Shown in pieces: positions 10,301 to 59,293 of a stretch of DNA of 60,008 bases. Location of the stretch: positions 1 to 60,008 of the IMG/VR virus record IMGVR_UViG_3300032330_000731; one strand, given 5' to 3'. This DNA is from a virus (Duplodnaviria; Caudoviricetes). The position numbers were made by a program, and so were the translations under genes. How positions within the stretch are numbered: the first letter of the stretch is position 1; every line of letters starts with the position of its first letter. The notes under the pieces are model-generated. The model saw nothing but the letters and a program-made list of their open reading frames with translations. It had not been told where the DNA came from and did no database searches.

Positions 10301-13300
10301 GGGCCAATAGTTGGTACTTCTTTACCGCTGCGCAGGCTAAACCTGGGCAGGCCAGTAGTCTTCACCTTGTCCTGCATGGCAGGGGTTACGTCGAAGCCGG
10401 GTTGTTGCACCCTTGCATCGTTAAGCAGTTGTTGCGTGGCTTGTTCTTTGGTTAAGTTAAATGCAATTGGCTCAAAATATGGGCCGTCAAATTCATCAAG
10501 CATGCGCTCTTCGATAGCGTATGTACCATCATCGTCTTTCACGATTCGTAAATCTTTACTGCGGGACAGACTAACTGTCCCCATCTGCCCGCCACCAACT
10601 TTTGGCAGCAGCTTCTTTACTGCCGTAGGTACGATGGTGTCGTAAAAAGCACGCATGCCTTTGGCTTCAATCTTTAAATCGTTGCCTTCGTAGTCACGGA
10701 CATTTTTCTTAAAATCGTCAGACGCGCCTGTTTTAACAACAGCCCCGGTTTCATTGATAATTTTGTCGGCCATCTCTTTACCGACAAGCTCTTCAAGAGC
10801 CTCTGGGGCGGCTCCATTTTTAGGCGTTATTTCTTGAGAAATATTGCTATCAATAGGCACCGCCCACAAAGTCCATTTTCCGTCTGAATGCTTAACAGCG
10901 CGGATTAGTTTGACCTGTTTATCAAGCGAAAATCTTTCAGTAGCTTGCTCCCCACGAACAAACGCCACCTTGTCATAGCCGCCTTCAGCGGCCATAACCA
11001 TGATGCGTTTGAGAGCGAGGTTTAGCCAGCCTTCGGTTTTGGTGACAAAGGGGGCTGCTGGAGGAAGCCCCATGCGCTTTGTTTCTTGAATCGCAAACTG
11101 TTGATCCTCGACCGGCATAGAGTCAAACTCTTCGCGGATCATTTGGTTTGCCTTTAAAACTGCCTCAATTGTTCCAGCAAAGCCTTTTTTCTTTCCTTCC
11201 TGGCCGAAATCACTTTGGAGTTCCTCTACAAACAGCACCTTATTACCATCAGCATCAGTGCGGTCGTTTACACGAATGTGGGCAAGGACGTTGGGCTGAT
11301 CCCAGTGGCTGGACTGGTAGTTGCTGTCCTCGACGGCCCTGCGGCCCCTCTGCAACTGGCGGAGCTTTTCGATTTCGTCAGCCGTCAGGTCGGCAAGCCC
11401 CGCCGCCCGGCCGTATTTGTCGAACAGCTCCTTGTTGTAGTCGTCGAGCGCGGAGTCGGGCTTCTTCTCCGGCAGCGTCAGCAATACCTCACGGTAGTTT
11501 TCACCACCGGGGAGGGTGTATTGGCCATACTTGGTGGGCTTTTCAACTTCAGCATTGAACAAATCACCATCAATATCCCTAAATCCACCCGTTGCAACAT
11601 CATCAAGAACTGTCTCCTCAACCTTTACACCACCTTCCTTTAGGTAGGTAAGAAGCTCATCCTTGGTAACTGTGCCCTTTTGTAGGTCAAGCCAGTCCTT
11701 TACACCTGACCATTCAATCTCATCAGGCTTTACACCCTTCTGCGTTAGGCCATTGATGTAGGCTTTCCAAGATGCTGCGGGAGCTTTGTTAGACCCTGCT
11801 TCAATCTTGTTTTCAAGCTCTGAGTACATGCCCAGCTTGTCACGCAGGCTGTAGCGAATGTCAGGATTTGTTTTGCTGTAGGTGCCAATGTTGCCTGTGG
11901 CTGATTTGATTTGAGTAGGCTCAAATGCGACAAATACATCCCCAAACTTTGGGTCAAATGTATTTTTAATAATTACGCCGTCGTGTTTTTGGGATTTTGC
12001 TTTTTTAATTAAATCAGCGTAAGAAATATCTCTAAATTCTTGCCCTTTCATGTCATAAACAAAAGGATTTTGCAGACTTAGGAATACCGGCATGATGTTT
12101 GCGCCGGACTTATTTTTTGTTAATAGAGTTTCAAACAAATCACTGGCTGCTTGATTTCTTGCACGCCACTCATCCGTCATCATCCAACCGTCAGTGCGGG
12201 CGCCCTTCGGCTTAAGTGAATCTCTATATTCTTGCGCATATTTAAATGCTTTTGCATCTTCTTCCGGCCATGAAGTAATAATCTCTTTTACCGAGATTTG
12301 ACCCTTTCTGGAGGCATTTCCTCCCGCGTACTCAGCAGCATTATCAGTTGAGTTTGTAAAGAAAAAGCCCTCGTATGCGCTTTTTGCTTTTGTGTTAACT
12401 CCAAGTGCATTTTTATTAAATTTAAAAATGTTTCCTGTAGTCCCGTGGTAAACCACCAGCGGCTCACCCTTATCATCTACCACCTTGCTATCACCAAACC
12501 AGTCTTTAAACGCTTCTGTTTTAGGAGCGCGCAGGCTGTAGCGGATTTTTACATTTTTATTAGCATCGTACTCAGACTTAATACCTTGATACTCTACAGG
12601 CACGTTATGGTTCAAAATTACCATCATGCCCATGTTAGGCACGGCATAGCCATCGTACCCCGCATCAACAATCAGCGACTCCATAGTATTGGCATCGCCG
12701 CGAGCTTTTGAGTAAATCTTACTTAAAGCAGCCGGTGGGATAATATTGTCAAATTTTTGAGTATAAACATAGCCGCCAACGCCAGACTCTGGCAGCGGCA
12801 TCGTTCCGTCTGTTTTCTCAATATAAAAGTAAACACGTTTCTTTACACGGTCATCCCAGTGCTGATCAAGCCGTCGAGCTTCTGCACCACGAAGGCCAGT
12901 GCCATACTTAGATGCGTCTAAGGTGTCAACTTTTGACTTGCCGTAATGAACGCCGCTAAAAGTAACAGAATCATCCTGCTTGGTGCCAAGGATTAAACCG
13001 TCCCTGGCAATTGCTTCCTTCCAAGTCCATTCAGGCATAAGACCAGTTTTTTGGTCCGCATAAATGGTGTCGGCGCCACTTGCTGTTTTGTTAAATTCAG
13101 CATTAGGACCAAAATTAACAGTTGAGTTTTGACCTCGCGTTTCGCTGGTCATTGCGCCAATAGCAGAGCCTGTAAACAGTTTTACATGAGCTTGCCATGC
13201 GTTTTCTTCGCCATCCGCCCTGAAGCCTGCACCTTCTAACCCATGCCCAAAAGCATCATGTACTGCGCGAAAAAGGTCATTAGCCAGAACTTTTTTCATC

Positions 13301-16300: not shown

Positions 16301-16743
16301 TCTGCGATAAATGAAACAAATAATGCAGGGTCTTTGATGGTAGAAGCTACTGCCGCGACACCCTCTGAAATAACACCATTCTTTGCTGCTTCTGCGATAA
16401 TTGATGCTTGCTGCGCTTCACGGGCCTTTAAACCTTCTGATTTAAGCGACTCAGCAAAGTCTTGCACCTTCTGCGGATACCGCATTGCTGCAGTGTCAAA
16501 GTTTCCAGTTGCCAGACCATAGACTTGACCCGGAAACTGGGCCATGCCAGCAAGGCCCTTTAACACAGCTACAGGAACATCTGCGGCCTTAAGGGCAGTG
16601 AGTTCAGTGCTTGGTGCAGGGGCCGGTTTAGCAGAGGACAAATGACTGCGTAACGCCTTAATCAGTAAGTTTGGATCAGCATTAGCCGGTCCTTCTACAT
16701 CATAAATTTTTCCATCAGGAGCCTGCACTTCATAGACCGGCAT
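7345..16743 (-). CDS. giant polyvalent virion/ejection protein (HExxH peptidase-like, ART-like domains, C-terminal LPD38-like)
   Basis: 3132 aa; HETIH at 14338..14352; FKDWFGDSKVVD..GEPLVVYHGT...QIKSA ART-PolyVal-like; IPFLNARIQG...IPIPFEIG LPD38-like; last gene of the virion arm. Confidence 0.85.
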   Translation of the reverse strand: MPVYEVQAPDGKIYDVEGPANADPNLLIKALRSHLSSAKPAPAPSTELTALKAADVPVAVLKGLAGMAQFPGQVYGLATGNFDTAAMRYPQKVQDFAESLKSEGLKAREAQQASIIAEAAKNGVISEGVAAVASTIKDPALFVSFIAEQVPQLLPALLTGGAYTALSTGARQLAKYGTKEAAEAAARAGAARVAIGTGVAQQGADVGADTYKEALDLAEKQYPGMSLEDRQALALSKARATAGEAGIVSLLAQRLPGGRAIERRMAGLPGEGRIRSALGEAASEMIEEGGGKFASNVNLQQIDPTRSLTQGVGQAAGLGAIGGGVLGGVIGQGAPAAPLQPGQRAGESLEQTTIRLQQEILNAQAAIGNLQQGTQDPSAQIANANTELAALAAGNQPLAIANQIQSVKEQDATRTVAQPSGGNLAVAVEPTAGTSANGESIERTGAIPTGQDAGVPVGGEGNAPTAVNPLLDLPDVVSTFKTERGSTYAYHSDNSTTRNRSGANHLDTTTGLQPRSAKTVFLTPDDVNKVGGVFQNADIATELVPVVEDNKPTGQLELRLTEDYGPKKAGTVLATVPYQTTPSVGLSPVEVYSEASPIGNEGTGIHFGTTITEVTPGSKTKQEAPVEAPKAVTALNEEAQTVLDKVNQAIEGSTAPNAPNRHTFNFQGQSFQVPGNQAALLRFKNTKLVKDFPNAFQTSPIQESLREKTEAPGTEAPKETRAELEQQKAENTKKIEAEIAEKKVQLSNALKTILTRMGLKDVSVKLIEEINSAEEGSYAEKLMSIAVDADNPLRVLRHETIHALKELGFFTDSQWKSLTSQANSKWIDQYLKSRQVELDGKTMSRYDAYMVKYNGNMDMIVEEAIADAFGDFSVKAPPGMLAALTARMKMLFQGIKSALNGTGFYTSDQIAEQIFTKVAKGQLKAPKATQASVQSTLQQVEGEKNGQVRSKQSAVRPDEGSREGSKARSSIRAAEPGDRGERRGEDRTIAPLQGAPSVPGANGPDPKIVDVAERYAKDKGIKLRRQTEYVKADPARGKRLADAYEAMQHNPQDPVVKEAYKNLIQQTTDQYLALKKSGYKFWFIDFNSADNLDYIASPWNAIRDLRKNQVMGVFPTTAGFGSSDLDVSTNPLLAKTDFEWPSGSLNGPMKKVLANDLFRAVHDAFGHGLEGAGFRADGEENAWQAHVKLFTGSAIGAMTSETRGQNSTVNFGPNAEFNKTASGADTIYADQKTGLMPEWTWKEAIARDGLILGTKQDDSVTFSGVHYGKSKVDTLDASKYGTGLRGAEARRLDQHWDDRVKKRVYFYIEKTDGTMPLPESGVGGYVYTQKFDNIIPPAALSKIYSKARGDANTMESLIVDAGYDGYAVPNMGMMVILNHNVPVEYQGIKSEYDANKNVKIRYSLRAPKTEAFKDWFGDSKVVDDKGEPLVVYHGTTGNIFKFNKNALGVNTKAKSAYEGFFFTNSTDNAAEYAGGNASRKGQISVKEIITSWPEEDAKAFKYAQEYRDSLKPKGARTDGWMMTDEWRARNQAASDLFETLLTKNKSGANIMPVFLSLQNPFVYDMKGQEFRDISYADLIKKAKSQKHDGVIIKNTFDPKFGDVFVAFEPTQIKSATGNIGTYSKTNPDIRYSLRDKLGMYSELENKIEAGSNKAPAASWKAYINGLTQKGVKPDEIEWSGVKDWLDLQKGTVTKDELLTYLKEGGVKVEETVLDDVATGGFRDIDGDLFNAEVEKPTKYGQYTLPGGENYREVLLTLPEKKPDSALDDYNKELFDKYGRAAGLADLTADEIEKLRQLQRGRRAVEDSNYQSSHWDQPNVLAHIRVNDRTDADGNKVLFVEELQSDFGQEGKKKGFAGTIEAVLKANQMIREEFDSMPVEDQQFAIQETKRMGLPPAAPFVTKTEGWLNLALKRIMVMAAEGGYDKVAFVRGEQATERFSLDKQVKLIRAVKHSDGKWTLWAVPIDSNISQEITPKNGAAPEALEELVGKEMADKIINETGAVVKTGASDDFKKNVRDYEGNDLKIEAKGMRAFYDTIVPTAVKKLLPKVGGGQMGTVSLSRSKDLRIVKDDDGTYAIEERMLDEFDGPYFEPIAFNLTKEQATQQLLNDARVQQPGFDVTPAMQDKVKTTGLPRFSLRSGKEVPTIGPKIDGTYLKRIQNIRDQIGNEYTSGKITFDEFQKRYDETNKEYVDALVFQKKLDESKPATSLEEVFPGFVSIPVGTKVLATWSDLHPSPTQATVVGSRDVRVGTKAYKFPVVDFNDGKKARTLTREDIKEVYAPRKFSLRSTFPQSTQASIDRITTARKDKGFISRMMEAIAPTAFSTYRQQYLNRYNQLGKYDKMLADQMSIPGLLADASSEAAALQSDLGAGLTASALGVHDRVGGIPVFRNGITVISNVNGTVGGPMQIFAKLTELGKGDPYIYQTYQQWAGSKRASRFNAQGIDTPYTAADLQEARNIEARYPEFVNIQKDYIKFNDGLVKYMLDTGIIDKEGAKKFSEHSDYIPFYRQLDGEATIGPNIFQSISGVKQPRKIKGGEAPLADFMETIVRNTQSIIQAGVKNTAAQRAVNVAMQLGPNFIKPLNYASSLPSDIVILEKGLKKYYRSSDPLWIESLKALNAADLPFNAFISGPANLLRTMVTKDPGFMLANMMRDSLAAHVTSGIKMVPIVDTIKNFTSAIAGKSPEFQALLNAGVLGGHEFSQNIEYSGKVLSKELRKKTGTTTTTEKILSPVTGLWSALEKGTTASDAATRIEVYKKTLAETGNEAEALFRALEVMNFNRKGNSPVIRVITAAIPFLNARIQGLDVLYRAGFGEINSANAEKVQKLFFIRGAQMMALSAMYWALTHDDDEYKKQESENRDNYWLLPSLGIKIPIPFEIGILFKVIPERILAYSFGDDTGQDFMKSMARQLSTTLAVNPIPQAALPVVEAVTNYSFFTQRPIVGQGMEGVAPGYQAGPGTTSVAADIGKALNISPMKLDHMIKGYSGTMGMYLMDVVDSVYSMNSDIEKPSKRLDQMPVLKRFLIDSEARGTVTAYYEMKNAADQVVRTDNLLERTFRFNDRADYLKENGKMLVAEEYVKTLEKTMKKFREMRIMVNSSSMSSDDKRDALRQITAAENKLTSNTQAMKKALQ
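13680..13910 (-). CDS. overprinted small protein inside the giant ORF (76 aa, MDKYDLNNLPFDPM...)
   Basis: alternative frame; SD GAAGGAG and TACAAT (-10-like, 13941..13946) directly upstream. Confidence 0.5.
   Translation of the reverse strand: MDKYDLNNLPFDPMKEAAKEARQGLPSEQQNPETEESDGERTAQLRLYKALRLSQALTGQTPKLLTLLNGTQKTKE
15342..15512 (-). CDS. overprinted small protein inside the giant ORF (56 aa, MLQELSHSQVEETLRWLWNPRLEPPQTVSQLNELELFLLGKMLESLLVEKEMHPLQ)
   Basis: hand translation in an alternative frame; SD AAGGA; amphipathic helical sequence while the main frame is low-complexity linker. Confidence 0.55.
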   Translation of the reverse strand: MLQELSHSQVEETLRWLWNPRLEPPQTVSQLNELELFLLGKMLESLLVEKEMHPLQ

Positions 16744-16755: not shown

Positions 16756-18624
16756 TTATTGCTTCTTGACGCCCAAAACGTTATACCCGCTAGCTTGAAC
16801 AGTTCCTGGCTTTAAAGGCTCTGGAAGACCAATCAGTCTATCAGACAGCAACCACTTGCGATACTGAAGGTTGTAATTCTGATCTTCAAAAAACTTATTT
16901 TGTTTAGCTTTTTCTTCTTCGTGAGCGCTTTTGACCGCATCCCATTTCTTTTGTTCTTCTGGCGATCTTTTAAAACCAGCATCATCTTCAGCAGTTTTTG
17001 CTGGGTTATTTTTCCTAAATGTATCGTCTAATAGTTTGTTGGCCGTAGCATTGATCCTAGAGTTTTCAAGGATGCGAGATTCAATTGCATTGATGTCGCG
17101 GCTTTCCGTTGCAAGCTTACGACTTTCTGCATCAGCATGTGCTTTCATTTGAGCAATACTAAGATTTACAGCATTTGTAGCTTGATGAATTGCTGCTAGA
17201 CCTTTTTCACTCATTGACTTTGATTGCAAGTCTGCAATTTGCCTTTGAATATCGTTTTTGCTAATCCTGATTTTTTCATCACGATCATTCTTTGTGGCAA
17301 TATCACCAAGTAACATTGCCTTATTTCTCTCGTTAATCAACTCTCGTTGATTATTGATTTTGTCCATAAACTCTAGTTTCTTACCACCCCAAATAAGATC
17401 ATCAGCCTTTTGCAGCCTTTCAGCAGCTTGATAGGCTTGAGTGCCCCTAGCAAGACCAGAGAATAATGTTGGCGCACCACCAGAGTTGGTAAGCATGGTA
17501 ATTAGATTGTCCATGCCACGACTTTTATTTGCTTCAGTGCGAGCAGCTTCTTGGTTTGCAAACTCTTTTTCTAATGCGGCGGTACGAGCTTTAGATTCTG
17601 CGCCGTATAAATCTACACCCAAAGCCTTGGCGTCAGCTTCTCTTTCTGCCCGAAGTTGTTGAGTGGTATATGCGGTTGGAAGATTTTTTTGTTGTTCATT
17701 AACCGCATCAAGGGCGGCTTTTTTGTCTGCTTCCATTGCGCTTAGGTCTACTTTACCAAGAGCAGTCGCAAGCGATCCAAGACCGCCTGTGCTGGGCCGA
17801 GCAGGGAAATTAAGACGCTGTGCGGGTGCGGCTTGAGGGGCAGCTTGAGGAGTAGCTTGAGGAGTAGTTTGAGATACTTGGCGTTCCAATGCCCTAAGTT
17901 GCTCAAGACTAAGCCTTGGTCCTTCTGTGGGCTTAGGTTCTTGTTTATCTTCTGTCACCCCACCAGCCCTGCGCAGTGCGTCAGAAATTGGTGTAAAGCT
18001 TACATCACTCCCCTCTGCCTTGCGCTTCCATTCTGGAGTGCTAGCTGCAGCCAATGCCCGTACCGTATTAACTGGCAAACTAAGAACATCAATTGCGCCC
18101 GTTACAGGAAGACCGGCATATGCTAGCAACTTCTTAAGATCAGACGCCTTTTTTGGTTCATCAATAACTTCAGACTGCGGTGCTTCGACAAACTCACCCA
18201 TTGTCCCGTTAAATCCTACAACACCGCCATGTTGAAACTTCATGTTTCTTGCGCTTAAAGACGCAATACCACCGCGAGCCATCTGCTGCGGTTGTTGGCT
18301 TGCCATCTGCATAAGCTGTTTTTGTAATTGAGCTTGTTGCGCAGCTTTAATTTGATCAGCAACATTGGCGCGCATTGCCACTTCACCCATAGGGGTGTTA
18401 GGGACGTTTTGAATTACTTCGCCTGGAGCTTCTGAAGACTGATTAAGCGCAGCAAGGCCCTGCTGTTGAATTTGCTGTGCAACAGTCCCAGAGGGGGCTT
18501 GATTTGATTCAGCTTGTTGACTGCGTTGAAGTTCTTGCAGTCCTGCGTTGATTTTAAATAAAGCTTTAAGAGGCTCTGAAGCCTCTGCTTTCCTTGATTG
18601 CTCTGCAAAAAACGGGGTATTCAT
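16756..18624 (-). CDS. putative internal virion/ejection protein
   Basis: Q/A/K-rich coiled coil; position before the giant protein; MARGG and FQHGG motifs. Confidence 0.7.
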   Translation of the reverse strand: MNTPFFAEQSRKAEASEPLKALFKINAGLQELQRSQQAESNQAPSGTVAQQIQQQGLAALNQSSEAPGEVIQNVPNTPMGEVAMRANVADQIKAAQQAQLQKQLMQMASQQPQQMARGGIASLSARNMKFQHGGVVGFNGTMGEFVEAPQSEVIDEPKKASDLKKLLAYAGLPVTGAIDVLSLPVNTVRALAAASTPEWKRKAEGSDVSFTPISDALRRAGGVTEDKQEPKPTEGPRLSLEQLRALERQVSQTTPQATPQAAPQAAPAQRLNFPARPSTGGLGSLATALGKVDLSAMEADKKAALDAVNEQQKNLPTAYTTQQLRAEREADAKALGVDLYGAESKARTAALEKEFANQEAARTEANKSRGMDNLITMLTNSGGAPTLFSGLARGTQAYQAAERLQKADDLIWGGKKLEFMDKINNQRELINERNKAMLLGDIATKNDRDEKIRISKNDIQRQIADLQSKSMSEKGLAAIHQATNAVNLSIAQMKAHADAESRKLATESRDINAIESRILENSRINATANKLLDDTFRKNNPAKTAEDDAGFKRSPEEQKKWDAVKSAHEEEKAKQNKFFEDQNYNLQYRKWLLSDRLIGLPEPLKPGTVQASGYNVLGVKKQ

Positions 18625-43597: not shown

Positions 43598-45094
43598 TTA
43601 ATAGTATTCAACCCTGCGACGAGGCAAATCATACTCTGCTTCATCTGTGTCAATTGTGATAAATCCACCTTGTCTAAACCTAATCAATGCTTGACTAGAA
43701 GAGTCCACAAGGTCATCGTTATCACCATTGGGAAAAGCTGCAAGTTCTTCCATCACTTCATCTGCCCATCTAGTCTCAGGGCACCAAACAACACCTGAAG
43801 CGAAAAGATCAGAAATAGCATTTACACGCGCAATCTTGTCATGTCCTTTGCCTGGGGTGTACTCAGACAATGGAATACCAATCTTCCTTAATTCATAAAT
43901 CAAAGGGGCACCTGCAGCCTTCTTTTCAATAATTAAGGTATCAGGCTCCCATTCCTTCCACATATCAAACGCAGCCTTCTTAAGCTCAGGAAACTCCATT
44001 CGTTTCTTAAAAGCATTTAGCAAGATGATATTTGGTTTTAAATTACCATACTTGTCAGGATGGTAAAAAACACCCCAAGTTGTACAAGCAGAGTAGTCAG
44101 CCCTGTTTGATTTTTCAAATGCTGTGTCCCAAGACTGAATAAGATAATCACAAGAGGGTGGGTCTTCTTTTTTCCAAATCTGCCATTGATCCCTCTTGAT
44201 GATCGCACCCTCTTCTGAGGTTGGATTTTGTTGGTACTGCGCTTCCCATTTGGATACAGGTAGTTCAGCCTTGAGGGCTTCTAGCTCTTCTTTACTCCAA
44301 AACGCAGGCCATAACGGAGTACCAGAAGGAAGGATTGCAGGGAACTCAATAACTTCCCACTCATTTACACCATCCTTCTCTGAGCCTTTAAGAATCTTTC
44401 CTGTTAAATCTCTGGTACTCCATCGAGTCATAACAACAACAATGGCCCCTCCAGGCTGTAAACGCTGACGGGGGCCTGATGTGTACCACTCATACACATT
44501 ATCAAAGATTGCAGGATTGTTTTGCTTTGCTTCCTGTTCACTATGAGGGTCGTCAATAATTAAAAGATCAGCACCCTTACCTGTTACAGCACCACCTACA
44601 CCAATAGCAAAATAATCACCACCTTTATTGGTATTCCATCGTCCTGCAGCTTTTGAATCACTAGATAGCTTTGTATCAAAAACTTTACTATATTGTTCAG
44701 AAGAAACTAGATTTCTAACTTTACGTCCAAAGCCTACAGCCAACTCCGCAGTGTGTGCTGTTTGAATAATCTTCTTCTCCGGGAACTTACCTAAAAACCA
44801 TGAAGGAAGTAAAAAAGAAGCAAACTCAGACTTAGTATGCCTAGGCGGCATGTTAATAATTAACCGCTTCAATTCTCCAGAAGCAACTCTCTCAAAAGCA
44901 TCAGCCATGATCTTATGGTGTTTACCTGAAATAAACACCGGCCACATCTGTTGAGTAAAGAACAAAAAAGACTCTTTACACCGTTCTACACGGTCAAGCT
45001 CCATTAAAGCAAATATCTTATTTCTCTCTGCTTCAGGAACTTGATCAACAATTGCTAAATAACTAGCAATCTCTTGTTTTGTCAAAAGACTCAC
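43598..45094 (-). CDS. terL: terminase large subunit
   Basis: MPPRHTKS Walker A, LLIIDD Walker B, QSWDTAF and DDLVDS nuclease motifs. Confidence 0.95.
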   Translation of the reverse strand: MSLLTKQEIASYLAIVDQVPEAERNKIFALMELDRVERCKESFLFFTQQMWPVFISGKHHKIMADAFERVASGELKRLIINMPPRHTKSEFASFLLPSWFLGKFPEKKIIQTAHTAELAVGFGRKVRNLVSSEQYSKVFDTKLSSDSKAAGRWNTNKGGDYFAIGVGGAVTGKGADLLIIDDPHSEQEAKQNNPAIFDNVYEWYTSGPRQRLQPGGAIVVVMTRWSTRDLTGKILKGSEKDGVNEWEVIEFPAILPSGTPLWPAFWSKEELEALKAELPVSKWEAQYQQNPTSEEGAIIKRDQWQIWKKEDPPSCDYLIQSWDTAFEKSNRADYSACTTWGVFYHPDKYGNLKPNIILLNAFKKRMEFPELKKAAFDMWKEWEPDTLIIEKKAAGAPLIYELRKIGIPLSEYTPGKGHDKIARVNAISDLFASGVVWCPETRWADEVMEELAAFPNGDNDDLVDSSSQALIRFRQGGFITIDTDEAEYDLPRRRVEYY

Positions 45095-45315
45095 AGGTCT
45101 TTCTCCACAACTTTTACAGAATAAAACTTACGTTTTGTATATTCCAAATGACCAGACTCAACAAGCCTCATAACAATCCTGTGCATATTAGACCTTGATT
45201 TCATCTTAAAACCTTTTGCTAAAGCCTCATACGATGGACTAATACCATGTAGCTTGTTATAAGCTTTAATAAAGTCCAATACAGACTGCCATCGTCTAGT
45301 CAATTTTTTAGCCAT
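45091..45315 (-). CDS. LexA-like DNA-binding domain protein (no protease domain)
   Basis: LT.R...VLDFI......HG.SPSY..LA......SRS..HR....L...G.L. Confidence 0.85.
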   Translation of the reverse strand: MAKKLTRRWQSVLDFIKAYNKLHGISPSYEALAKGFKMKSRSNMHRIVMRLVESGHLEYTKRKFYSVKVVEKDL

Positions 45316-46187: not shown

Positions 46188-46256
46188 TTTTGAAACCTCG
46201 TTTATGCGAACGACCATACCCTTATCAGGATAGTGCTTTGTACGCAGTGTAAACCC

Positions 46257-46300
46257 TTGTCCACAGCTTGTCCACATACTCTATCCACATCTTATCCACA
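46257..46300 (+). promoter_or_regulatory. four tandem DnaA boxes (TTATCCACA orientation)
   Basis: TTGTCCACA 46257, TTGTCCACA 46268, CTATCCACA 46281, TTATCCACA 46292. Confidence 0.8.
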
Positions 46301-46346
46301 AGACGTAAGCACCCGGAGTCTGCCTGTAAACCCAGGGTAAACCCGA

Positions 46347-46429
46347 GTCTTCTATAAGACCTATTCCCACTCTTATATAAGACACAAGACTAGTCTTCTA
46401 TAAGACCTGACCGCAGTCTTCTATAAGAC
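46347..46429. repeat. four 14-bp palindromic repeats GTCTT-(C/A)TAT-AAGAC with a 23-bp period
   Basis: copies start at 46347, 46370, 46393 and 46416. Confidence 0.92.
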
Positions 46430-46432
46430 CTG

Positions 46433-46476
46433 TGTGGATAAACCTGTGGATAACTTATGTATAACCCTGTGGATAA
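46433..46476 (-). promoter_or_regulatory. four tandem DnaA boxes (TGTGGATAA orientation)
   Basis: TGTGGATAA 46433, 46445, 46468; TATGTATAA 46456. Confidence 0.85.
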
Positions 46477-46672
46477 CTTCGTTGTATAAAAGAGACAAAA
46501 CGCCTAGGATCGACGAACGGACCACGGTTGATAGCACGGTAGCTATCTGACCATTAAACGCAGCCTGGGCCGTTTTAATGCGTTCTAGGGGCATGTATGT
46601 TTAGACAGTGCTTGTGCTTTACAGGCCAGTCCAGTCTAGGTGTTTACCCTAGTCATGCCTTTTTGGTCTTTT

Positions 46673-46689
46673 CTGGCACGGTGGTTGCT
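46673..46689 (+). promoter_or_regulatory. sigma-54 (-24/-12) consensus site
   Basis: CTGGCACG-GTGG-TTGCT matches YTGGCACG-N4-TTGCW; faces the early operon. Confidence 0.6.
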
Positions 46690-46857
46690 ACGCGGGCGCG
46701 CACGGGCGCACGTTGGGTAGATTGATTGATGCTTGTCGGTCTGACGCGAGAACGACCATCACTTAGGGTAAGCACCTAGGCTATCGTGTTTACAGTGCGC
46801 GCAGCAATCGATAGCATCGGGGCTGGTTTAACAGCCCATGATGGGCATGGAGTGAAA

Positions 46858-47370
46858 ATGAACAGAGAGCAATGGTTAATGCAGGCGGTGGAAGAACTGC
46901 GCCCACTATTCCAGGCTGCTGGATACTCTTTGCCCACCACTGTGCGGGTTACCTGCGGGTTCCCTAGCACTGCCCGACGCAGTGGCACGTTGGGTGAAAC
47001 GTGGTCCGCAGCAGACTCTGCGGACGGCGCCACGGAAGTGATGATCAGCCCGGTACTGGCCGGCGCTGCGGATGTGCTGGCGGTGCTGCTGACACAATTG
47101 TCAGTGGCCGCTGATGGGCGTAAGCATGCCCAGGTGCTGTCGGCTGTCGGGTCCAATCCTGATGACTATGCCGGCCTGCTGGCGGACCTGGGCGACTATC
47201 CCCATGCTGCCCTGGCACTGCCCACCAAAGCCACTCAGGTCACCCGCATGCTGAAGGCCTGCTGCCCCTCGTGCGGTTACACCGTGCGACTCACGCAGAA
47301 ATGGGTTAGCAAAGGCCTGCCCATTTGCGGCACTTGTGGTGAAGGGTTTAAATTGGAGGCTGCAGAATGA
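46858..47370 (+). CDS. SprT-like protein lacking HExxH, with C-terminal zinc ribbon
   Basis: REQWL...LRP.F...VRVTCGFP...GE.W....SADG..E..ISP; TRMLK..CP.CGYTVR...KW...GLP.C. Confidence 0.75.
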   Translation: MNREQWLMQAVEELRPLFQAAGYSLPTTVRVTCGFPSTARRSGTLGETWSAADSADGATEVMISPVLAGAADVLAVLLTQLSVAADGRKHAQVLSAVGSNPDDYAGLLADLGDYPHAALALPTKATQVTRMLKACCPSCGYTVRLTQKWVSKGLPICGTCGEGFKLEAAE

Positions 47371-48956
47371 GCCGCGCTATTGTTTCGATTCTCAAGCACC
47401 CTGCTAGCACTGTGCTGGCTGCCGCCCGCGCACTGGGCTACACCGGGGCAGACGACAAAATGACCGCCGCAGAATGGATCGTTGTTTGCGGGCATGTCCA
47501 GGCGTTTGAGGGGCTTGTCGCGTCAGCGCAGCCGGCGCCAATCCTGGCGTATAAACCCAGCACCGCGATGGCAGCACTGCCACCCGCAAAACCTGCTAAA
47601 CCTGATCCGGTGTTTGTCCCGGTTGTCAATGACTGGGGGCAGAAAGCGATGTCGGCCATTACTGCGGTGGACAATCAACTCCAGGCAGTGGTGGTGGCTG
47701 TTGCTAAGCTCACGGGTGATCTGTCGGGCATCGATTCCCGCGCTGACAGCGCAAAGCTGGCCGCCGCTACTGCCCGTTCAGAGGCTCAACGCGCAGCAAC
47801 GCAGGCGGGCGACATGGTGCAGCAGGCCCGCGCCGACATGCAAAAAACCGAGACCGAATTGCGCCGCGCTATCGCTGATGCGGTGGCCCAGTTGCAGGCC
47901 CGTCCCGCGCCTGTCATTGACCCTGCTGCAGTCGCTACGGAGGTCTCCCAGGCTGTCGCTGCTGCGTTTAAACCGTTTGCCCAGGCTGTGACTGATGCCG
48001 GCGCAGAATCGACCATCGGCGCGATGACGTCAGCTAGCATTGTTGATCGGAAAACCGCAAAACAGGTTTTCGGAGTGAATGTTAATGACGCAAAGGGCAG
48101 TCCGGTAATGGTTGATATTTGGGACCATCCCGGCGCCCCTGCGGTTGACCCGACCTTTATTTGGTCTAAACCCATTCTGCGGCACCTGCTGCTGTCGCAA
48201 TCGACGGGCGAAAATGTTTGGTTTGGTGGAGATAAGGGCACAGGTAAGTCTGAGACTGCCCGACAATTTGCTGCACGCACGGGCCGTGGATTTACACGGA
48301 TTAACTTTCACAAGTATTCCGCCCAGGAGGACTATCTCGGCGCGACTGGCCTTCAAGCCGGGTCTACCGCCTTCGAGCCGCAAGCCTTTTTGAAGGCTTA
48401 CACAAGCCCTAGCACGGTCATCCTGCTGGATGAAGTGACTAACGCTGATCCGGGCAATCTGGCGCCCCTGAATGGCCTGCTGGAGCCCGGCGCTGCGGTT
48501 TCAATCGGTGGTCACGTTTGGAGGCGTGCCCCGGGCGTGCTTGTCTTTGCTGCAGACAATACCCTAGGCAGTGGAGATCAGTCGGGCCGGTATGCTGGCA
48601 CCCGTGAGATGAATAGCAGTCTGATTGACCGTTTTCCTCGGATTGTGCGGTTTGATTTTCTGCCCATGAAATCGGAAGTGGAAGCTGTCGTCCGACATAC
48701 TGGGTGCGTGCCCGAGTTGGCAGAGCATATTCTGCAGGCAGTTAATATCGCCCGTCAAAAAGTCACTACGGGCGATATTGTGGACGCACCCTCGATCCGC
48801 TCGGTGATCGGTTTCATCCGTGCGCTGGCGATGATGCCAGTAGAGGATGCGTGGGCCTCCAGTATTGCCGCACGCCAGCCCGCTGAGTCTGCCCTGGCGC
48901 TGGAGGCTATCCGCACGGCATCAATTGATGAATCTAAAATTAAAGGCTGGATTTAA
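47367..48956 (+). CDS. MoxR/CobS-like AAA+ ATPase with N-terminal coiled coil
   Basis: GDKGTGKS Walker A, ILLDE Walker B, AADNTLG.G, LIDRF. Confidence 0.9.
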   Translation: MSRAIVSILKHPASTVLAAARALGYTGADDKMTAAEWIVVCGHVQAFEGLVASAQPAPILAYKPSTAMAALPPAKPAKPDPVFVPVVNDWGQKAMSAITAVDNQLQAVVVAVAKLTGDLSGIDSRADSAKLAAATARSEAQRAATQAGDMVQQARADMQKTETELRRAIADAVAQLQARPAPVIDPAAVATEVSQAVAAAFKPFAQAVTDAGAESTIGAMTSASIVDRKTAKQVFGVNVNDAKGSPVMVDIWDHPGAPAVDPTFIWSKPILRHLLLSQSTGENVWFGGDKGTGKSETARQFAARTGRGFTRINFHKYSAQEDYLGATGLQAGSTAFEPQAFLKAYTSPSTVILLDEVTNADPGNLAPLNGLLEPGAAVSIGGHVWRRAPGVLVFAADNTLGSGDQSGRYAGTREMNSSLIDRFPRIVRFDFLPMKSEVEAVVRHTGCVPELAEHILQAVNIARQKVTTGDIVDAPSIRSVIGFIRALAMMPVEDAWASSIAARQPAESALALEAIRTASIDESKIKGWI

Positions 48957-48957
48957 A

Positions 48958-50535
48958 ATGAATCTCCAAACCATTATTGGCCGCCCGCAGGTGCTGGGCT
49001 GGGAATTGCGCACCGCAATCGAGCAGGCTTTGCCACGCATCACCCAGGCGCTGGCAATCAATCCTGTTAGCGTTTTTTGGGCGCCCGGCGCCACTACGGC
49101 ATCCATCGGACAGTATGGTGACATCCGGCTTCCCATGGTCAGTGATGATGCCGTTATCGGTCGGTCTATGGTGACGCGGTACGTGGGTTATATCGTCCAC
49201 GAGCTTCTGCACCGCAAATATACTGACTTTAATGTAAACGCTCCAAACGAGTATTTGGCCCGCTTCCACAATGCCGTGGAGGACGTTTGGATTGAGCGTA
49301 GGGCTGTCTCTGCTGCTTTGCTGGGCAATATTGAAAACCTTTTGTCCGGTTTGGTTGACGGTATTGTTGGCGAAGCCCTGGCACAGACTATTGATTGGAC
49401 AAACCCGGCCCAGTTTCCATTCTCTTTTGCGGTGTTTGGCCGTAAATACGTTTCCCGCAAAATCCCTGTCCCGGGCAATCTGCTGTCAATTTACATTGAA
49501 GCAGACAAGCGCATTGATTCCTGTCAATCATCCGCAGACACCCTAGAAGTGGCCCGCTGGATTGTGGATCAAATTGGGAAACAAGACAGCAAGCCAAACA
49601 AGCCCAGGGAGGCCCAGGGAGGCGCGCAGGGCGACGCACAGGGGGAAGCCCAGGGCGATGCACAGGAAGGCGATCAGGAAGCCCAGGGTGACGCGAAGGA
49701 AGGCGCCCAGGAAGCCCCTGATGCGGGGCAAAGCAAGCCCCTAAACGGCAAGCACGATACGGCAGTCGAAGTGGAACCCGGCCTGCCTGCTCGCCCTGGC
49801 GATAGGGGGACGTTCTGCCGTGGAAATAGTGTTTTGCCTGATCGGATTCACACTCCCACATGGGCATCGTATAGGTTAGAAGATTCTGATGTTCCTGCAG
49901 CACTGCGGGTTGATATTCGGAAGCTGTTTGCCAACACAGCAAACGACGATTGGCAAATGCACCGCAAAACAGGGTCAATTGATACCCGTCAATTGGCGAC
50001 TGGAGGCGCCAGCATGTTTAAACGTCGTCTGGAAACCTCCGGTGTTGATTCTTCGGTTGTTATCCTGCTGGATGTTTCCGGGTCTATGTTCCCTCGCCTG
50101 ATTGGACCGGCTGCAGGTGCCTGCATGGCCCTTATGTCTGCACTTGATGGTGCTGGAGTTGAATCCGCGCTGCTTACGTTCGGCGACGGTGTTTCGACGG
50201 TCAAACCGTTTGGCAAGAATAGTCGCCAAACAAAGCAACATCTTCAACATATAAACATGGGCGGAGGAACTGATGACTATGTTGCTTTGCTGCATGCGCA
50301 TAGTCTTTTGCATACCCGCAAAACAGGCCGGAAGGTTTGTTTTGTAGTGACCGACGGAGAGGGCCGTGTTTCAGAGACTAGAGCGCAAGCAAAAATTGGC
50401 GCAAACCTGGGCATTACGACCATCGGTATCGGTATTGATAAAGATGTTTCATATATTTATAAACATGCCGTGATGGTGAGAAAAGTGTCCGACCTGGGCG
50501 CCGCGATGTTCTCAAAGATCAAAGGAGTTCTTTGA
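48958..50535 (+). CDS. CobT-like VWA-domain protein with HExxH
   Basis: HELLH...N.VED..IE; acidic linker; LLDVSGSM (MIDAS), GGT, VTDG. Confidence 0.88.
   Translation: MNLQTIIGRPQVLGWELRTAIEQALPRITQALAINPVSVFWAPGATTASIGQYGDIRLPMVSDDAVIGRSMVTRYVGYIVHELLHRKYTDFNVNAPNEYLARFHNAVEDVWIERRAVSAALLGNIENLLSGLVDGIVGEALAQTIDWTNPAQFPFSFAVFGRKYVSRKIPVPGNLLSIYIEADKRIDSCQSSADTLEVARWIVDQIGKQDSKPNKPREAQGGAQGDAQGEAQGDAQEGDQEAQGDAKEGAQEAPDAGQSKPLNGKHDTAVEVEPGLPARPGDRGTFCRGNSVLPDRIHTPTWASYRLEDSDVPAALRVDIRKLFANTANDDWQMHRKTGSIDTRQLATGGASMFKRRLETSGVDSSVVILLDVSGSMFPRLIGPAAGACMALMSALDGAGVESALLTFGDGVSTVKPFGKNSRQTKQHLQHINMGGGTDDYVALLHAHSLLHTRKTGRKVCFVVTDGEGRVSETRAQAKIGANLGITTIGIGIDKDVSYIYKHAVMVRKVSDLGAAMFSKIKGVL
49609..49716 (+). 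repeat. degenerate 12-bp tandem repeat encoding (E/D/G)AQG units
   Basis: EAQGGAQGDAQGEAQGDAQEGDQEAQGDAKEGAQEA linker. Confidence 0.7.
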
Positions 50536-50547
50536 CCCTAGCCGCTA

Positions 50548-50565
50548 GCCCTGGTTCGCCAGGGC
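50548..50565 (+). other. GC-rich hairpin in the early intergenic region (no U-tract)
   Basis: GCCCTGG-TTCG-CCAGGGC. Confidence 0.6.
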
Positions 50566-50610
50566 GTGCGAGTGGGGCCACAGTGGCAACACATACCCGG
50601 ATATAAAACA

Positions 50611-50934
50611 ATGTCAAACGACGAACTGAACGTGCAGCAGGGCGCTGCATATGAAGCACTTCGCAACGCAATCGAAGCCGCAGTGGATGCCCTGGCAAGC
50701 GCTACAACCGCAGCCAACGTCTACGCCCATGTAGTGGCACTGCAGAGCGATGACCCTGCTCAGACCCTGGCGCAGTTAGCCTGGACGAACCGGGGAAGCT
50801 GGAGCGGTGGCCCGTTGGGCAAGAACAATCTGCAGGAGAACCTGCTGCGCGAGGAGGCTCTGCAACTGATGGTGCGCGATGAGTGGATGCGCCGCCCCTT
50901 GCGCAAGCTGCGCCCCATGAAAGGCCCGCAATGA
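50611..50934 (+). CDS. hypothetical protein
   Basis: ORF with GC-rich codon use. Confidence 0.7.
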   Translation: MSNDELNVQQGAAYEALRNAIEAAVDALASATTAANVYAHVVALQSDDPAQTLAQLAWTNRGSWSGGPLGKNNLQENLLREEALQLMVRDEWMRRPLRKLRPMKGPQ

Positions 50935-51014
50935 TGGAGGAAGTCTGGGATTTGCTGTTTGCCGCAGCACTGGGCGTGGCGGGTGCCTACCTGCTGGTGC
51001 TGTGGATAGCATGA
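50931..51014 (+). CDS. small membrane peptide (MMEEVWDLLFAAALGVAGAYLLVLWIA)
   Basis: hand translation; ATGA coupling. Confidence 0.5.
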   Translation: MMEEVWDLLFAAALGVAGAYLLVLWIA

Positions 51015-52038: not shown

Positions 52039-54786
52039 TTAAAACTTATCCACTAATTCAGAATACGTTCCTGCGGTTTTGTTATATAGCAAAGCCGTCT
52101 CGCCCTGGGTGCCAACCCATCTATATCTGCACTTCCAGACTGCAATCTCTACCATCTTGTCTGCCCGGTGGACGGTAATACCGCAGTCTGTTTTGGCCCA
52201 CCATGCCATTGAATTACCAGATACAACAACCTTGCCATTCCTCCGCGTGATGTATGCGCCTGTCGATACAGTCAAGCAATACACCTTACCTGCGTAAGGT
52301 ACAACAACCATATTTCGGGCGGGTTCAACCGTTCTTTCTTTTTCATTTCTGATCATTACGATATAACGGTCGTAATGATGAGACAGCGCCCCAGCGTAGG
52401 ATGAAATGTGCGCCCACATACCAAGCTCAATACATAGCCTCTGCACATCGTCTGCAAGCTGCTTGCTGGCAGTGTGATAAGTCGTATACCCTGATTCTTG
52501 TACGCTTCCGTCCCCAAAAATCATCCCGTCAAGCAACGCCTTCTTTGCTTCAATGGAAGATGACCATATCAGATTTGGAAGCCGCTTATTGGCGCAGCCT
52601 TCACCACAGTTTTCAATAACAAATTTCTGAAGCTCAGGGTTAGATCGCTTAAACATCCTGTTAACCCACATTGGCTTTTCGTATTCGCGTGCTGATTTAC
52701 GAACAACGCAAGAGGATTTGACGCCAAGAGCGCTTACAACTTCCCTTGGCAGACTAGAGTTCTCATCTACTTGGCAAACTGACAGTGCGCCCATAGACAC
52801 ATGCCCCTCCGCTATCCAAAAACCAACGTACCACCAGAACGGGTGGAGCGCATAGCCGTGATCAAAGTTTAAATTAGTAGGCGACGAGGCTTGGACTGGA
52901 TTGCCGACCATTGGAATAGACCAGCGTGATGTGGTTACATCCTCGCTATTGCAAAAATTAAATCCTTTACTCCAAGTGCATGGACGGCCCGTCTTTTTTG
53001 ACCCCTTAGTCTTCTTCCGGCTAAATGCAGGCTTAACCAACATTCTGTGGTTTGGAGTTATCAGGAAGTCGGTTCCATTACCAGACCAGTGATGCATTGG
53101 TCCGTCATGGTCGTATTCATGGATATGCTCCGGCAGTTCATAAAAAACATCCTGGGTATCTGGATTGAAGACGGCAACCCTATCTTCGTAGGATACTTGA
53201 GAGTGGTTGACCCATCCCCTCATCGTCAAGACTTCCGTATCTGACGAATAACACCCGCTAATGCTCATTCCATCCGGCCTGGGTTGATCGACGCCTGAAC
53301 GATTGACCTTACTAGGGTGAGCAACGAAAAATGTGTGGACATCGAACGCCTTACAGAACTTTTGAATTCTGGTCAGCATGTTACTGATTGCTTCTGTTTC
53401 TGTAGTGTTGTCCCGGGGAAGCTCAAGATAGTTATAAGGGTCAATCACCAAACCCCGGATTCCCATACGCTTTACACCGACCCTTGCTCTGTCAAGGATT
53501 GAGTCTAGGGTCGATGGTTCCTCTCCGTTTGAGTCGATGAATAGGAAGTGGTCATTCACCCAGTCAAGCGCAGCAGACTTTTCTGAATGAGACATGCGGT
53601 CCTTACCCTCAAAGAACCGTTTACCCGTGTAAATCTCCATCAGCCGGGATATATGAATCTCGGGTTGATTCTCAAAGCTACAAACCGCAAACTTCCAGTC
53701 ATCTTTCCTGGCAATGTTTACCATCATTTGATCAACGAAATTACTTTTGCCCGATGACGGATAACCCGTCACGACCGTAAGCTGCCCAGGTGCAACTGTG
53801 TAAATCTGGTCAACCGAGGAATATCCAGTCGAGAATCCCTTGCCTGTTCCTTTGGCGTATAAATCATTCAGCCTGTCTTCATACGAGGCTGCGATGGTCA
53901 GGCCGGCGATTGGATACGGCGCGGCAGCATCAATAATTTCATTAACCCTGACCCTCCCCGTCCGTGATGGGTCATTCCGTGATGGGTCAAGGAAGACTTC
54001 ATTCAGGTCTTTACTAGAGAACTTTGCAATCCTGCATTTCTCTTTGCCAATTCTGCGTGCCAGTTCTTCGGCTAACGCTTGGCCGGGACCATCCTGGTCT
54101 GTTGCTAATACTACATACGGTGCTGCGTCCAGTATCTCCCGCGCATTCCATACATAAGCAAACTTTTTATCCTCAGACGGCAGTACCTTTCCATCTGCGA
54201 CTTTGATTGGCGCCCCGGAAGGCACACTAACTGCATTTAAAACTCCAGACTCAATCAATGTCAGGCAATCAATCTCACCTTCGACAATGATGATTGGCTT
54301 GCCTTTTTCTACAAGGTCAATACCAAAGAAGTCATGCGCACCCCCGGCGTCTTGTGTAAAATCCTTTTCAGGGAACGATCTATATTTGGCAGATACTAAC
54401 GCCCCGTTCCTGAAATAAGGAAAACCAATTGCATCTGCGGTTTTGTTTAGGCGACTAAAGAATTTATCCGCAGCAAATAACTGCATTTTGTCTGCGGTTT
54501 CTTTAGTTATACCCCTTGTAAGTAAATAAGCATAATGTTTTTCTTCTAACTTATTACTGATAATTTCTTTAGTCACTATAGCTGCCAATTTAAACTCCCG
54601 TTTGGTCTTTGGTTGTATAGCGCCTGTCTCTTGACAGTGGTGACAGTAGTAAAGAACTGCCCCGTCACCCTTGCGGGTGAGCGTCATGTCTTTTGCCCTG
54701 CTGTTTTTTCTGTCTCCCGAGCATGCGGGGCAGGCTACTCTCGTTGATTCATTGAAGTCAAATTGCTCAATGAACTCAGGTGTCAT
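52039..54786 (-). CDS. Twinkle/T7 gp4-like primase-helicase, intein-containing
   Basis: N-terminal CPAC...CHHC zinc finger; TOPRIM (EGEID, DQD); GYPSSGKS; VIDPY; VAHP. Confidence 0.93.
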   Translation of the reverse strand: MTPEFIEQFDFNESTRVACPACSGDRKNSRAKDMTLTRKGDGAVLYYCHHCQETGAIQPKTKREFKLAAIVTKEIISNKLEEKHYAYLLTRGITKETADKMQLFAADKFFSRLNKTADAIGFPYFRNGALVSAKYRSFPEKDFTQDAGGAHDFFGIDLVEKGKPIIIVEGEIDCLTLIESGVLNAVSVPSGAPIKVADGKVLPSEDKKFAYVWNAREILDAAPYVVLATDQDGPGQALAEELARRIGKEKCRIAKFSSKDLNEVFLDPSRNDPSRTGRVRVNEIIDAAAPYPIAGLTIAASYEDRLNDLYAKGTGKGFSTGYSSVDQIYTVAPGQLTVVTGYPSSGKSNFVDQMMVNIARKDDWKFAVCSFENQPEIHISRLMEIYTGKRFFEGKDRMSHSEKSAALDWVNDHFLFIDSNGEEPSTLDSILDRARVGVKRMGIRGLVIDPYNYLELPRDNTTETEAISNMLTRIQKFCKAFDVHTFFVAHPSKVNRSGVDQPRPDGMSISGCYSSDTEVLTMRGWVNHSQVSYEDRVAVFNPDTQDVFYELPEHIHEYDHDGPMHHWSGNGTDFLITPNHRMLVKPAFSRKKTKGSKKTGRPCTWSKGFNFCNSEDVTTSRWSIPMVGNPVQASSPTNLNFDHGYALHPFWWYVGFWIAEGHVSMGALSVCQVDENSSLPREVVSALGVKSSCVVRKSAREYEKPMWVNRMFKRSNPELQKFVIENCGEGCANKRLPNLIWSSSIEAKKALLDGMIFGDGSVQESGYTTYHTASKQLADDVQRLCIELGMWAHISSYAGALSHHYDRYIVMIRNEKERTVEPARNMVVVPYAGKVYCLTVSTGAYITRRNGKVVVSGNSMAWWAKTDCGITVHRADKMVEIAVWKCRYRWVGTQGETALLYNKTAGTYSELVDKF
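52213..53253 (-). mobile_element. intein with LAGLIDADG endonuclease (347 aa)
   Basis: SISG|CYSSDTEVLT...GFWIAEG...LLDGMIFGDG...VYCLTV...RRNGKVVVSGN|SMAWW. Confidence 0.93.
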
Positions 54787-58626: not shown

Positions 58627-59013
58627 ATGCCAATGAACTTTGAATGCCTCAAGGTGGCGCTCAAGCAAGACCGCACAGGTTTTGTCTTGACGCTAAAGAT
58701 TCACCCCGATGAAATCCCGGAAGCACTTATCCGCGACTTTGTTGGTGCCCGGTATGGCTGCGCTTTAGTTCGTATAAATGACGACGAGACGCCGGTTGTT
58801 TACAACGACCGGGTAATGAGGGCAGCAACTCTCTGCAAAGACAAAGAGTTTCATGGATTCCTCGGTGTTCTTAGTGAGGATACTGCAGTAGAAGCTCTGT
58901 ATAAATACTGTAGGATTTCTTCTAGGTCTGAGCTTAACGGTAATAAGAAAGCTCAGGATTTGTTTGATACCCTATTTGCAGAATACAAAGAAAGTCAAAA
59001 TGACCCATTCTAA
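58627..59013 (+). CDS. conserved phage hypothetical protein
   Basis: FE..KVALKQD..G.VLTL.IHPDE.PE...RDFVGARY; SRSEL. Confidence 0.75.
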   Translation: MPMNFECLKVALKQDRTGFVLTLKIHPDEIPEALIRDFVGARYGCALVRINDDETPVVYNDRVMRAATLCKDKEFHGFLGVLSEDTAVEALYKYCRISSRSELNGNKKAQDLFDTLFAEYKESQNDPF

Positions 59014-59293
59014 ACTAAAGTCCTTCCTAGCTTATATTGAGCCAGAGTCATACGATGAGCTAAAGAAGTTTGCATTGGCTAATAAGATTCCAATGACAAG
59101 GGTTGCGCGAGAAGCAATTAACGCACGGCTGTCTGGCAATGAACCTTACACAGCAGGATTTGATGAGGGCATTCAGCGGGCCATTGATTCTGTAAACAAG
59201 AATAAAGCAGCGCAGATGCGGTTTCCGAATGGCGAATCTGTTGCAGATTTAATTATCAAAGAGCTAAAAAATGAAATCATTGCCAAGCCCTGA
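59000..59293 (+). CDS. ribbon-helix-helix-like DNA-binding protein
   Basis: F.AYI....Y..LKKFA....IPMT.V.REAI..RL. Confidence 0.65.
   Translation: MTHSKLKSFLAYIEPESYDELKKFALANKIPMTRVAREAINARLSGNEPYTAGFDEGIQRAIDSVNKNKAAQMRFPNGESVADLIIKELKNEIIAKP

Follow-up and report, generated by a model that had tools for sequence, protein, structure and literature searches.

The window analyzed here, the whole 60,008-nucleotide stretch of the virus record IMGVR_UViG_3300032330_000731 (Caudoviricetes), contains four 14-bp palindromes at an exact 23-bp period in front of its terminase genes. These palindromes are very probably copies of a bacterial host operator, which selection maintains and a host protein recognizes. 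In Burkholderiales, the same palindrome adjoins genes of the tricarboxylic acid (TCA) cycle and the glyoxylate shunt, and closely spaced copies of it occur in more than 100 viral contigs. The phage thus probably captures or listens to host regulators by means of bare DNA, as many other phages are likely to do.

The palindrome array and its counterpart in Burkholderiales

The array consists of the following elements, none of the four boxes having a strand of its own.

46347–46360, no strand: box 1, GTCTTCTATAAGAC, a single change from the perfect host palindrome
46370–46383, no strand: box 2, CTCTTATATAAGAC, identical to the variant upstream of the isocitrate lyase gene in Polynucleobacter (G003) and Limnohabitans (G004)
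46384–46390, + strand: third heptamer, ACAAGAC, after box 2; the host extension is ATAAGAC
46393–46406, no strand: box 3, GTCTTCTATAAGAC
46416–46429, no strand: box 4, GTCTTCTATAAGAC; a perfect DnaA box begins 3 bp beyond its end

The start-to-start distances are 23, 23, and 23 bp. An earlier sequence-only reading of the window had reported these four palindromes at 46347, 46370, 46393, and 46416 with an extension of box 2; the palindromes and their period were borne out by the sequence and by shuffling, and the extension is present as TCTTATATAAGACACAAGAC at 46371–46390. When up to two mismatches to GTCTTNTATAAGAC were allowed, the four places (eight strand-hits) were the sole matches in the 60,008-bp record, and no further box copies were found anywhere in it. 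Across 100 dinucleotide-preserving shuffles, the mean number of strand-hits was 0.97 and the maximum was 5, with none of the 100 reaching the observed 8. All four boxes lie within one change of GTCTTATATAAGAC or its variant CTCTTATATAAGAC, and they are identical to one another at 78 of 84 compared positions, as against 21 of 54 for the 9-bp spacers. The outer heptamer extension follows box 2 only, with one change (ACAAGAC), and is absent at boxes 1, 3, and 4. The motif (T/G)GTAAACCC is present in three copies near the array (46248–46256, 46325–46333, and 46336–46344), the last two immediately preceding box 1.

An exact scan for GTCTTATATAAGAC was made in one genome per prokaryotic species, and the counts that follow refer to the matches listed. 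Among the 80 matches listed with titles, 60 were from Burkholderiales or betaproteobacteria, 17 were from other phyla, and 3 were unclear, as judged from the organism names. Pfam annotation of the flanking open reading frames (ORFs) at 28 betaproteobacterial loci, picked by their ORF layout, revealed a TCA or glyoxylate gene adjoining the palindrome in 26 and none in 2. The adjoining gene encoded isocitrate lyase in 14 loci, was mdh with a divergent gene for a GntR regulator with a UTRA domain in 5, icd in 4, and an aconitase gene in 2, and encoded malate synthase in 1. At the mdh/GntR loci, sdhA comes next wherever the locus extends far enough. The exact form GTCTTNTATAAGAC was found in 24 of 81 genomes of the order Burkholderiales; 28 of the 31 exact sites in these 81 genomes were perfect palindromes, the free position being G in two of the others and C in one.

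The sequence-only reading had likened the array to the operator of a TCA regulator of Burkholderiales, which it named as the GntR/HutC-family protein SdhR, with an ATAAGA extension, and had proposed a scan of Polynucleobacter and Comamonadaceae as candidate hosts. This resemblance was upheld: GTCTTATATAAGAC lies between mdh and a GntR/UTRA (HutC-type) gene beside sdhA, as well as upstream of aceA, icd, acn, and the malate synthase gene. A 2-Mb Polynucleobacter genome contained approximately five sites, including those at mdh/GntR, aceA (a CTCTT variant), and acnB, and a Limnohabitans genome contained the CTCTT variant at aceA. The extended consensus of 134 host half-sites, from which 17 loci with non-betaproteobacterial titles were left out, was TCTTAT-G-TCTTAT / ATAAGA-C-ATAAGA, that is, a series of heptamer repeats, and its flanks equal the ATAAGA extension given in the sequence-only reading. 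Read by eye from the printed strings, box 2 and its flanks differed from the aceA site of Polynucleobacter at a single base, 22 of the 23 being the same. The boxes in the window precede no TCA, glyoxylate, or regulator gene, their neighbors being the small terminase subunit gene (terS) and genes of unknown function; because the array lies outside such promoters, it represents a copy of the operator and not a member of the host regulon.

The sdh-linked GntR/UTRA protein is the presumed binder of GTCTTATATAAGAC and presumably acts as a repressor, because the site occurs in the promoter region of its own gene and near start codons. In searches of NCBIfam, the HutC, PhnF, and other matches of this regulator all fell below the cut-offs, giving no specific family name. 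The name SdhR is the provisional label given by the sequence-only reading: it does not occur in the RegPrecise 3.0 paper, and literature searches, with supplements outside their scope, found no paper in which SdhR appears together with both GntR and succinate dehydrogenase, or together with Burkholderia or RegPrecise. Among the papers listed by a further search on GntR, isocitrate lyase, and Burkholderia, again with supplements outside its scope, none concerned this regulator. The host loci (L142–L221, L372–L451, and L492–L497) outline an apparently uncharacterized Burkholderiales regulon comprising mdh, sdh, aceA, icd, acnA/acnB, and the malate synthase gene, with a heptamer-repeat operator. 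In Comamonadaceae, two full operators occur 29–30 bp apart, and they are located upstream of the isocitrate lyase gene at the three loci checked (L167, L177, and L216).

Arrays in other viruses and in close relatives

A scan for two boxes 16–46 bp apart, applied to viral contigs and prokaryotic genomes, identified paired boxes in 108 viral contigs. Spacings were measured at 80 loci of these 108 contigs between boxes with at most one mismatch, 10 of the loci retaining fewer than two such boxes. The viral spacings were 23 bp (76), 30 bp (13), and 22 bp (7), with a few others, and arrays contained up to six boxes. In prokaryotes, by contrast, 54 of 77 spacings were 30 bp, 10 were 29 bp, and none was 23 bp; 72 of 80 prokaryotic clusters consisted of two boxes, mainly in Comamonadaceae. 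The periods fit 7n + 2, with one added heptamer giving 23 bp and two giving 30 bp. A scan of viral contigs for single boxes returned almost solely single matches, L093 being the informative exception. In five contigs of 64–140 kb (L280, L311, L313, L324, and L341), the pair had a 42-bp spacing and lay inside an ORF; these contigs look like viruses of eukaryotes because the neighboring genes carry U-box, WW, and UCH domains, and they were taken as unrelated and left out of the sequence logo.

The viral boxes resemble the host operator in their variants as well as in their core. Among 193 phage boxes, 53 were perfect and 48 were the CTCTT variant, so that the commonest phage forms were also the commonest host forms. 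The host flanks were retained in part (T at −6 in 52%, T at −3 in 47%, and A at −2 in 52%), and many phage units had one exact host-type extension on one side. The viral loci formed about 16 groups without any common protein, and no protein of the window was shared with array loci outside its own lineage. The usual neighbors were a 427-amino-acid large terminase subunit (TerL; 25 loci), an adjacent 163-amino-acid protein (27 loci), and an SU10-type portal protein, another set having a T7-type TerL. Three or more lineages of terminase have an array next to their genes. At 59 of 71 loci, the array was free of any spanning ORF, most commonly in the gap between divergent genes or at a contig end. 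A contig end lay within 200 bp of at least 12 of 80 arrays in a manual count, and one 36-kb record had an array at both ends. In a T7-like locus and in G001 (L263), strong sigma-70-type promoters are clustered 90–170 bp downstream of the array. The spacers of the G001 array are identical, which shows recent tandem duplication. In the GenBank record MW202796.1, the array has leftward genes of early type on one side and the rightward terL and portal genes on the other. Of 70 arrays, 22 had perfect DnaA boxes no more than 400 bp away, with 49 matches as against 0 for three control 9-mers.

Two further motifs were seen beside these arrays. In L263, TGTTCCACGTGAAACA at approximately 513–528 lies 100 bp after the three-box array and is one base off the parS consensus of ParB. 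A G-rich motif, GGGGAGGGG, and its variants occur beside the arrays in podovirus-like groups (L287, L294, L282, L275, L285, and L498, the last being MW202796.1 at 18340–18360), and this motif may belong to a terminal repeat or concatemer junction.

The distribution of the boxes among close relatives is patchy. Nearly all of the 14 loci related by terS have DnaA-box clusters immediately upstream of this gene. Across the lineage, the number of palindromes ranges from four in the window and L342, through three in L330 and one in L006, L285, L289, L295, and L302, to none in L005 and L007–L018. The closest relative, L005, shares 96% identity in TerL, 92% in a small winged helix–turn–helix (wHTH) protein, and 78% in the small terminase subunit TerS, yet it has no boxes in the 6.8 kb compared; only the terS-proximal DnaA boxes and a promoter-like block can be aligned between the two upstream regions. 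The boxes thus vary independently of the phage proteins. Between the window and L342, whose TerS proteins are 48% identical, 40 of 42 box positions and 11 of 27 spacer positions are identical, with no indels, so both the boxes and their spacing are under selection. In blastn searches of GenBank phages, a 2.5-kb segment around the array gave no match, the array alone gave a single weak match, and the consensus array of L287 matched one record, MW202796.1.

The non-coding hub around the array

The array is situated in the largest non-coding stretch of the window, a hub of 670 bp at approximately 46188–46857, 160 bp upstream of terS. The features of the hub and its borders are as follows.

46257–46300, + strand: left DnaA-box cluster, TTGTCCACA, TTGTCCACA, CTATCCACA, and TTATCCACA at 46257, 46268, 46281, and 46292
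46433–46476, − strand: right DnaA-box cluster, three perfect TTATCCACA at 46433, 46445, and 46468 and a degenerate copy near 46457
46246–46274, − strand: promoter-like TGGACA-17-TACACT, directed at terS; overlapped by DnaA boxes, with both hexamers kept in L005
46766–46817, + strand: motif GGGTAAGCACCTAG followed by promoter-like TTTACA-17-TAGCAT (46789–46817), preceding the rightward genes; same layout in L005
45591–46187, − strand: terS (small terminase subunit, phrog_51), its start taken as the ATG at 46187–46185; first gene of the leftward packaging and structural block
45091–45315, − strand: 74-amino-acid LexA-type winged-helix protein between terS and terL, kept in box-free relatives
46858–47370, + strand: first rightward gene, phrog_6361, function unknown, followed by genes for a CobS-like AAA_5 ATPase and a VWA/CobT-like protein

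The array is therefore bracketed by four and three DnaA boxes, an arrangement that the sequence-only reading did not mention. The left boxes are spaced at 11, 13, and 11 bp, those at 46257, 46268, and 46281 having one mismatch each and that at 46292 being perfect, and the right cluster has the opposite orientation. All four perfect TTATCCACA in the window and three one-mismatch boxes are confined to 220 bp around the array. Similar proximity was observed within the lineage: DnaA boxes lie 2–5 bp from palindrome boxes in the window, L006, L288, L330, and L342, and in the arrays of L330 and L342 an 11-bp stretch accommodates a DnaA box inside the array itself. No promoter-like hexamers overlap any palindrome in the window, the nearest being approximately 70 bp to the left and approximately 360 bp to the right. 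AT content over 40 bp peaks in the hub at 70% (46450–46490), the 95th and 99th percentiles of the genome being 67.5% and 75%.

The leftward minus-strand block runs in the order terS, the 74-amino-acid LexA-type wHTH gene, terL, and the portal gene. Other small DNA-binding candidates in the window are a weak wHTH match at 2442–2795 and a weak Arc-like match at 58964–59293. Neither a GntR-family domain nor a DNA polymerase was found among the 67 ORFs of the window scanned, and scans of the hub and window detected no Rfam families or tRNAs. The window, a complete virus record of 60,008 bp, has a 123-bp end repeat that falls within a gene and so reflects overlap in the assembly, not a physical terminus.

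Several other features of the region were recorded. Just past the array-side DnaA boxes, a palindrome, TTTCACAATGTGAAA, which may be the site of another host or phage protein, occurs in L288 (3108–3122), L330 (3097–3111), and L342 (2327–2341), and also in L226, L237, and L355; it is absent from the window. The GGGTAAGCACCTAG-type motif GGGTAA(A/G)CACCTAG lies 7–10 bp upstream of −35 hexamers at 46766–46779 (+) in the window, where a second copy is found on the − strand at 46636–46649, and in L005 (2056), L006 (1612), and L263 (558 and 823). In L263, which is an unrelated T7-like contig, it precedes two TTGACA-16-TACAAT promoters. The motif may serve as an upstream element common to these promoters or as the site of another protein. 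Positions 46500–51000, which cover the phrog_6361, CobS-like AAA_5, and VWA/CobT-like genes, have a G+C content of 55–59%, as against approximately 45% elsewhere, and look like a module gained from a phage of higher G+C content; the same block is present in L330 and L342, with 64% identity in the ATPase protein. The 915-amino-acid primase/helicase (Toprim and DnaB_C; 52039–54786, −), whose gene is 6 kb from the array, has a LAGLIDADG domain near residues 750–800 and may therefore contain an intein or a homing-endonuclease insertion. A 3132-amino-acid ORF (7345–16743, −) among virion and ejection protein genes matched only PHROGs of unknown function.

Possible functions of the array and comparison with known systems

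The function that we tentatively favor, at a probability somewhat short of even, is that the array sequesters the host repressor of the TCA and glyoxylate genes and so serves as a decoy; titration of a host metabolic repressor had also been suggested in the sequence-only reading. The array would be bound by the GntR/HutC-type regulator whose gene lies next to those for succinate dehydrogenase, with no phage protein required. With no more than about five such sites in a host genome, the four consensus-grade sites on each replicating phage genome would outnumber those of the host. Repressor would then be drawn away from aceA, acn, icd, mdh, and sdh, making more energy and precursors available during infection, and the neighboring DnaA boxes may sequester DnaA in the same way. 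A decoy fits the packing of up to six consensus-grade sites more closely than in any host arrangement, the variable orientation of the phage arrays and their variable distance (approximately 90–500 bp) from promoter-like sites, and the patchy, accessory distribution of the boxes, which resembles that of auxiliary metabolic genes. By extension, the array might be a non-coding "auxiliary metabolic element", in which phage DNA alone soaks up the TCA/glyoxylate repressor and, through its flanks, DnaA, switching on the glyoxylate shunt and TCA cycle while restraining host replication. Dilution of these proteins could also time the packaging genes, and such elements would be a widespread means of host takeover in phages of freshwater and soil Burkholderiales. 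This wider proposal is possible but doubtful. A literature search on phage decoy or titration sites, with supplements outside its scope, found nothing relevant.

Several observations weigh against a decoy for the host regulator. The presumed binder was assigned from gene neighborhood. Three of the four boxes in the window have C at position 6, a rare base there among host sites (1 of the 31 exact sites in the 81 genomes), and a single box has the heptamer extension. In several lineages, the array is always located in the hub between early and packaging genes, and in the lineage of the window it abuts DnaA boxes or even accommodates one; this constant place and close contact suggest a local role. 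The strict 23-bp period exceeds what a sponge strictly needs. Furthermore, T7-like phages silence host transcription early, so that in the array-bearing T7-like phages the benefit of derepression would be blunted.

A local role could take the form of a cis-acting gate, in which the same host repressor forms a nucleoprotein complex with DnaA in the hub. Such a complex might make the carbon state of the host govern either the firing of the early and packaging promoters, which diverge from the hub, or the start of replication by DnaA, or it might act as a copy-number timer that frees the late genes as host proteins are diluted. We consider this unlikely on the whole, although it accounts for the position of the arrays beside terS, terL, or early promoters in several lineages, the enrichment and near contact of perfect DnaA boxes, and the retention of the spacing where the spacers have diverged. 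The two opposed four-box DnaA clusters are also like the two halves of a bacterial origin, and no DNA polymerase was found among the scanned ORFs. On the other hand, the distance and orientation of arrays relative to promoters differ between lineages, the boxes in the window are overlapped by no promoter-like site, and L005, the closest relative, works without an array. Nor does an AT-rich unwinding element clearly stand out, the best 40 bp falling between the 95th and 99th percentiles.

The sequence-only reading had offered iterons for a phage protein as its alternative, which is disfavored here and seems quite improbable. In that case, the array would be the core of an origin bound by a phage-encoded initiator or repressor, and its likeness to the host operator would be coincidence or mimicry. 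Four repeats spaced by roughly two helical turns and framed by DnaA boxes have this appearance, the primase/helicase gene is not far away, and the LexA-like wHTH (45091–45315) and the weak wHTH and Arc-like matches are candidate binders. However, the boxes match the host operator even in its common variants and in the extension on one side, and no gene for an initiator lies next to the array. The same boxes also recur in about 16 groups of loci with no array-side protein in common. Box-free relatives also retain TerS, TerL, and the ribbon–helix–helix, wHTH, and LexA-like candidates. Because no phage protein tracks the boxes, and because L005 keeps its TerL and wHTH without them, we regard them as host-operator copies and not as phage iterons.

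Still less probable is a pac- or cosB-like recognition site at which TerS or a host bending factor would start packaging. The array does lie just upstream of terS, the neighborhood of terminase genes is a recurrent setting (at least three lineages), and some arrays occur near contig ends, at both ends in the case of the 36-kb record. Nevertheless, unrelated terminases would need to read the same 14-mer, and the hubs of L005 and nine more terS relatives are box-free despite the close similarity of the L005 terminase. Contig ends also arise when assemblies branch at shared hub modules, and the end repeat of the window is itself an assembly overlap. Finally, chance or a functionless tandem duplication is practically negligible: identical spacers in some arrays, such as that of G001, do point to recent duplication, but no shuffle reached the observed count, the boxes were kept without indels while the spacers diverged, and the 108 viral contigs show a sharp preference for 23 bp within the permitted range of 16–46 bp.

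If the host-operator reading is correct, the arrays of more than 100 phage contigs would manipulate or sense central carbon metabolism by bare DNA. In practical terms, the array would provide a marker by which Burkholderiales hosts of uncultured phages could be recognized from sequence alone. It would also provide a first sketch of a TCA/glyoxylate regulon that has a heptamer-repeat operator and takes in mdh, sdh, aceA, icd, acn, and the malate synthase gene, and a testable case of phage copy number set against host regulators.

A close known counterpart is the operator of the sdh-linked GntR/HutC regulator itself, which has the same 14-bp palindrome and whose aceA variant in Polynucleobacter and Limnohabitans is reproduced by box 2, followed in the window by a third heptamer with one change. 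Host promoters have one site or two at 29–30 bp, whereas the phage has four at 23 bp with no TCA gene downstream, and three of its boxes have the host-rare center base. Iteron origins with flanking DnaA boxes, such as P1 oriR and RK2 oriV, and the lambda origin with its four dyad-symmetric O-binding repeats are similar in having four repeats at approximately 20–23 bp and DnaA boxes on either side. Their repeats are read by, and covary with, the initiator of the replicon, whereas those in the window are the same as a host operator and do not go together with any phage protein. Regulator sites also occur within bacterial origins (ArcA in Escherichia coli oriC, CtrA in Caulobacter, and Spo0A in Bacillus), where transcription-factor sites are interleaved with DnaA boxes and initiation is coupled to the state of the cell; these are chromosomal and have a clear unwinding element, whereas none stands out here. 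The E. coli datA locus and the DnaA boxes of T5-like phages are DnaA-titrating loci or DnaA-box arrays. In these, as perhaps in the present array with its flanking DnaA boxes, non-coding high-grade sites may hold a host protein away from its targets, but they concern DnaA only, whereas here the operator of a presumed metabolic repressor is arrayed.

Sites for host regulators on phage DNA are already known. Passages of Sullivan et al. (2010; PMC3037559) describe 1–16 NtcA-binding sites in each marine cyanophage genome and propose that host metabolic signaling is exploited. The likeness lies in phage DNA with sites for a host metabolic regulator; as those passages present them, the NtcA sites are single, located at scattered promoters, and bound by an activator, whereas the present sites form one packed array for a presumed repressor, away from promoter hexamers. 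A packed and widely shared operator array for a metabolic repressor was not found in the literature searches described above. Known phage routes into host metabolism are borrowed metabolic genes and single host-regulator sites at promoters, from which an array of bare DNA with its own spacing rule would differ.
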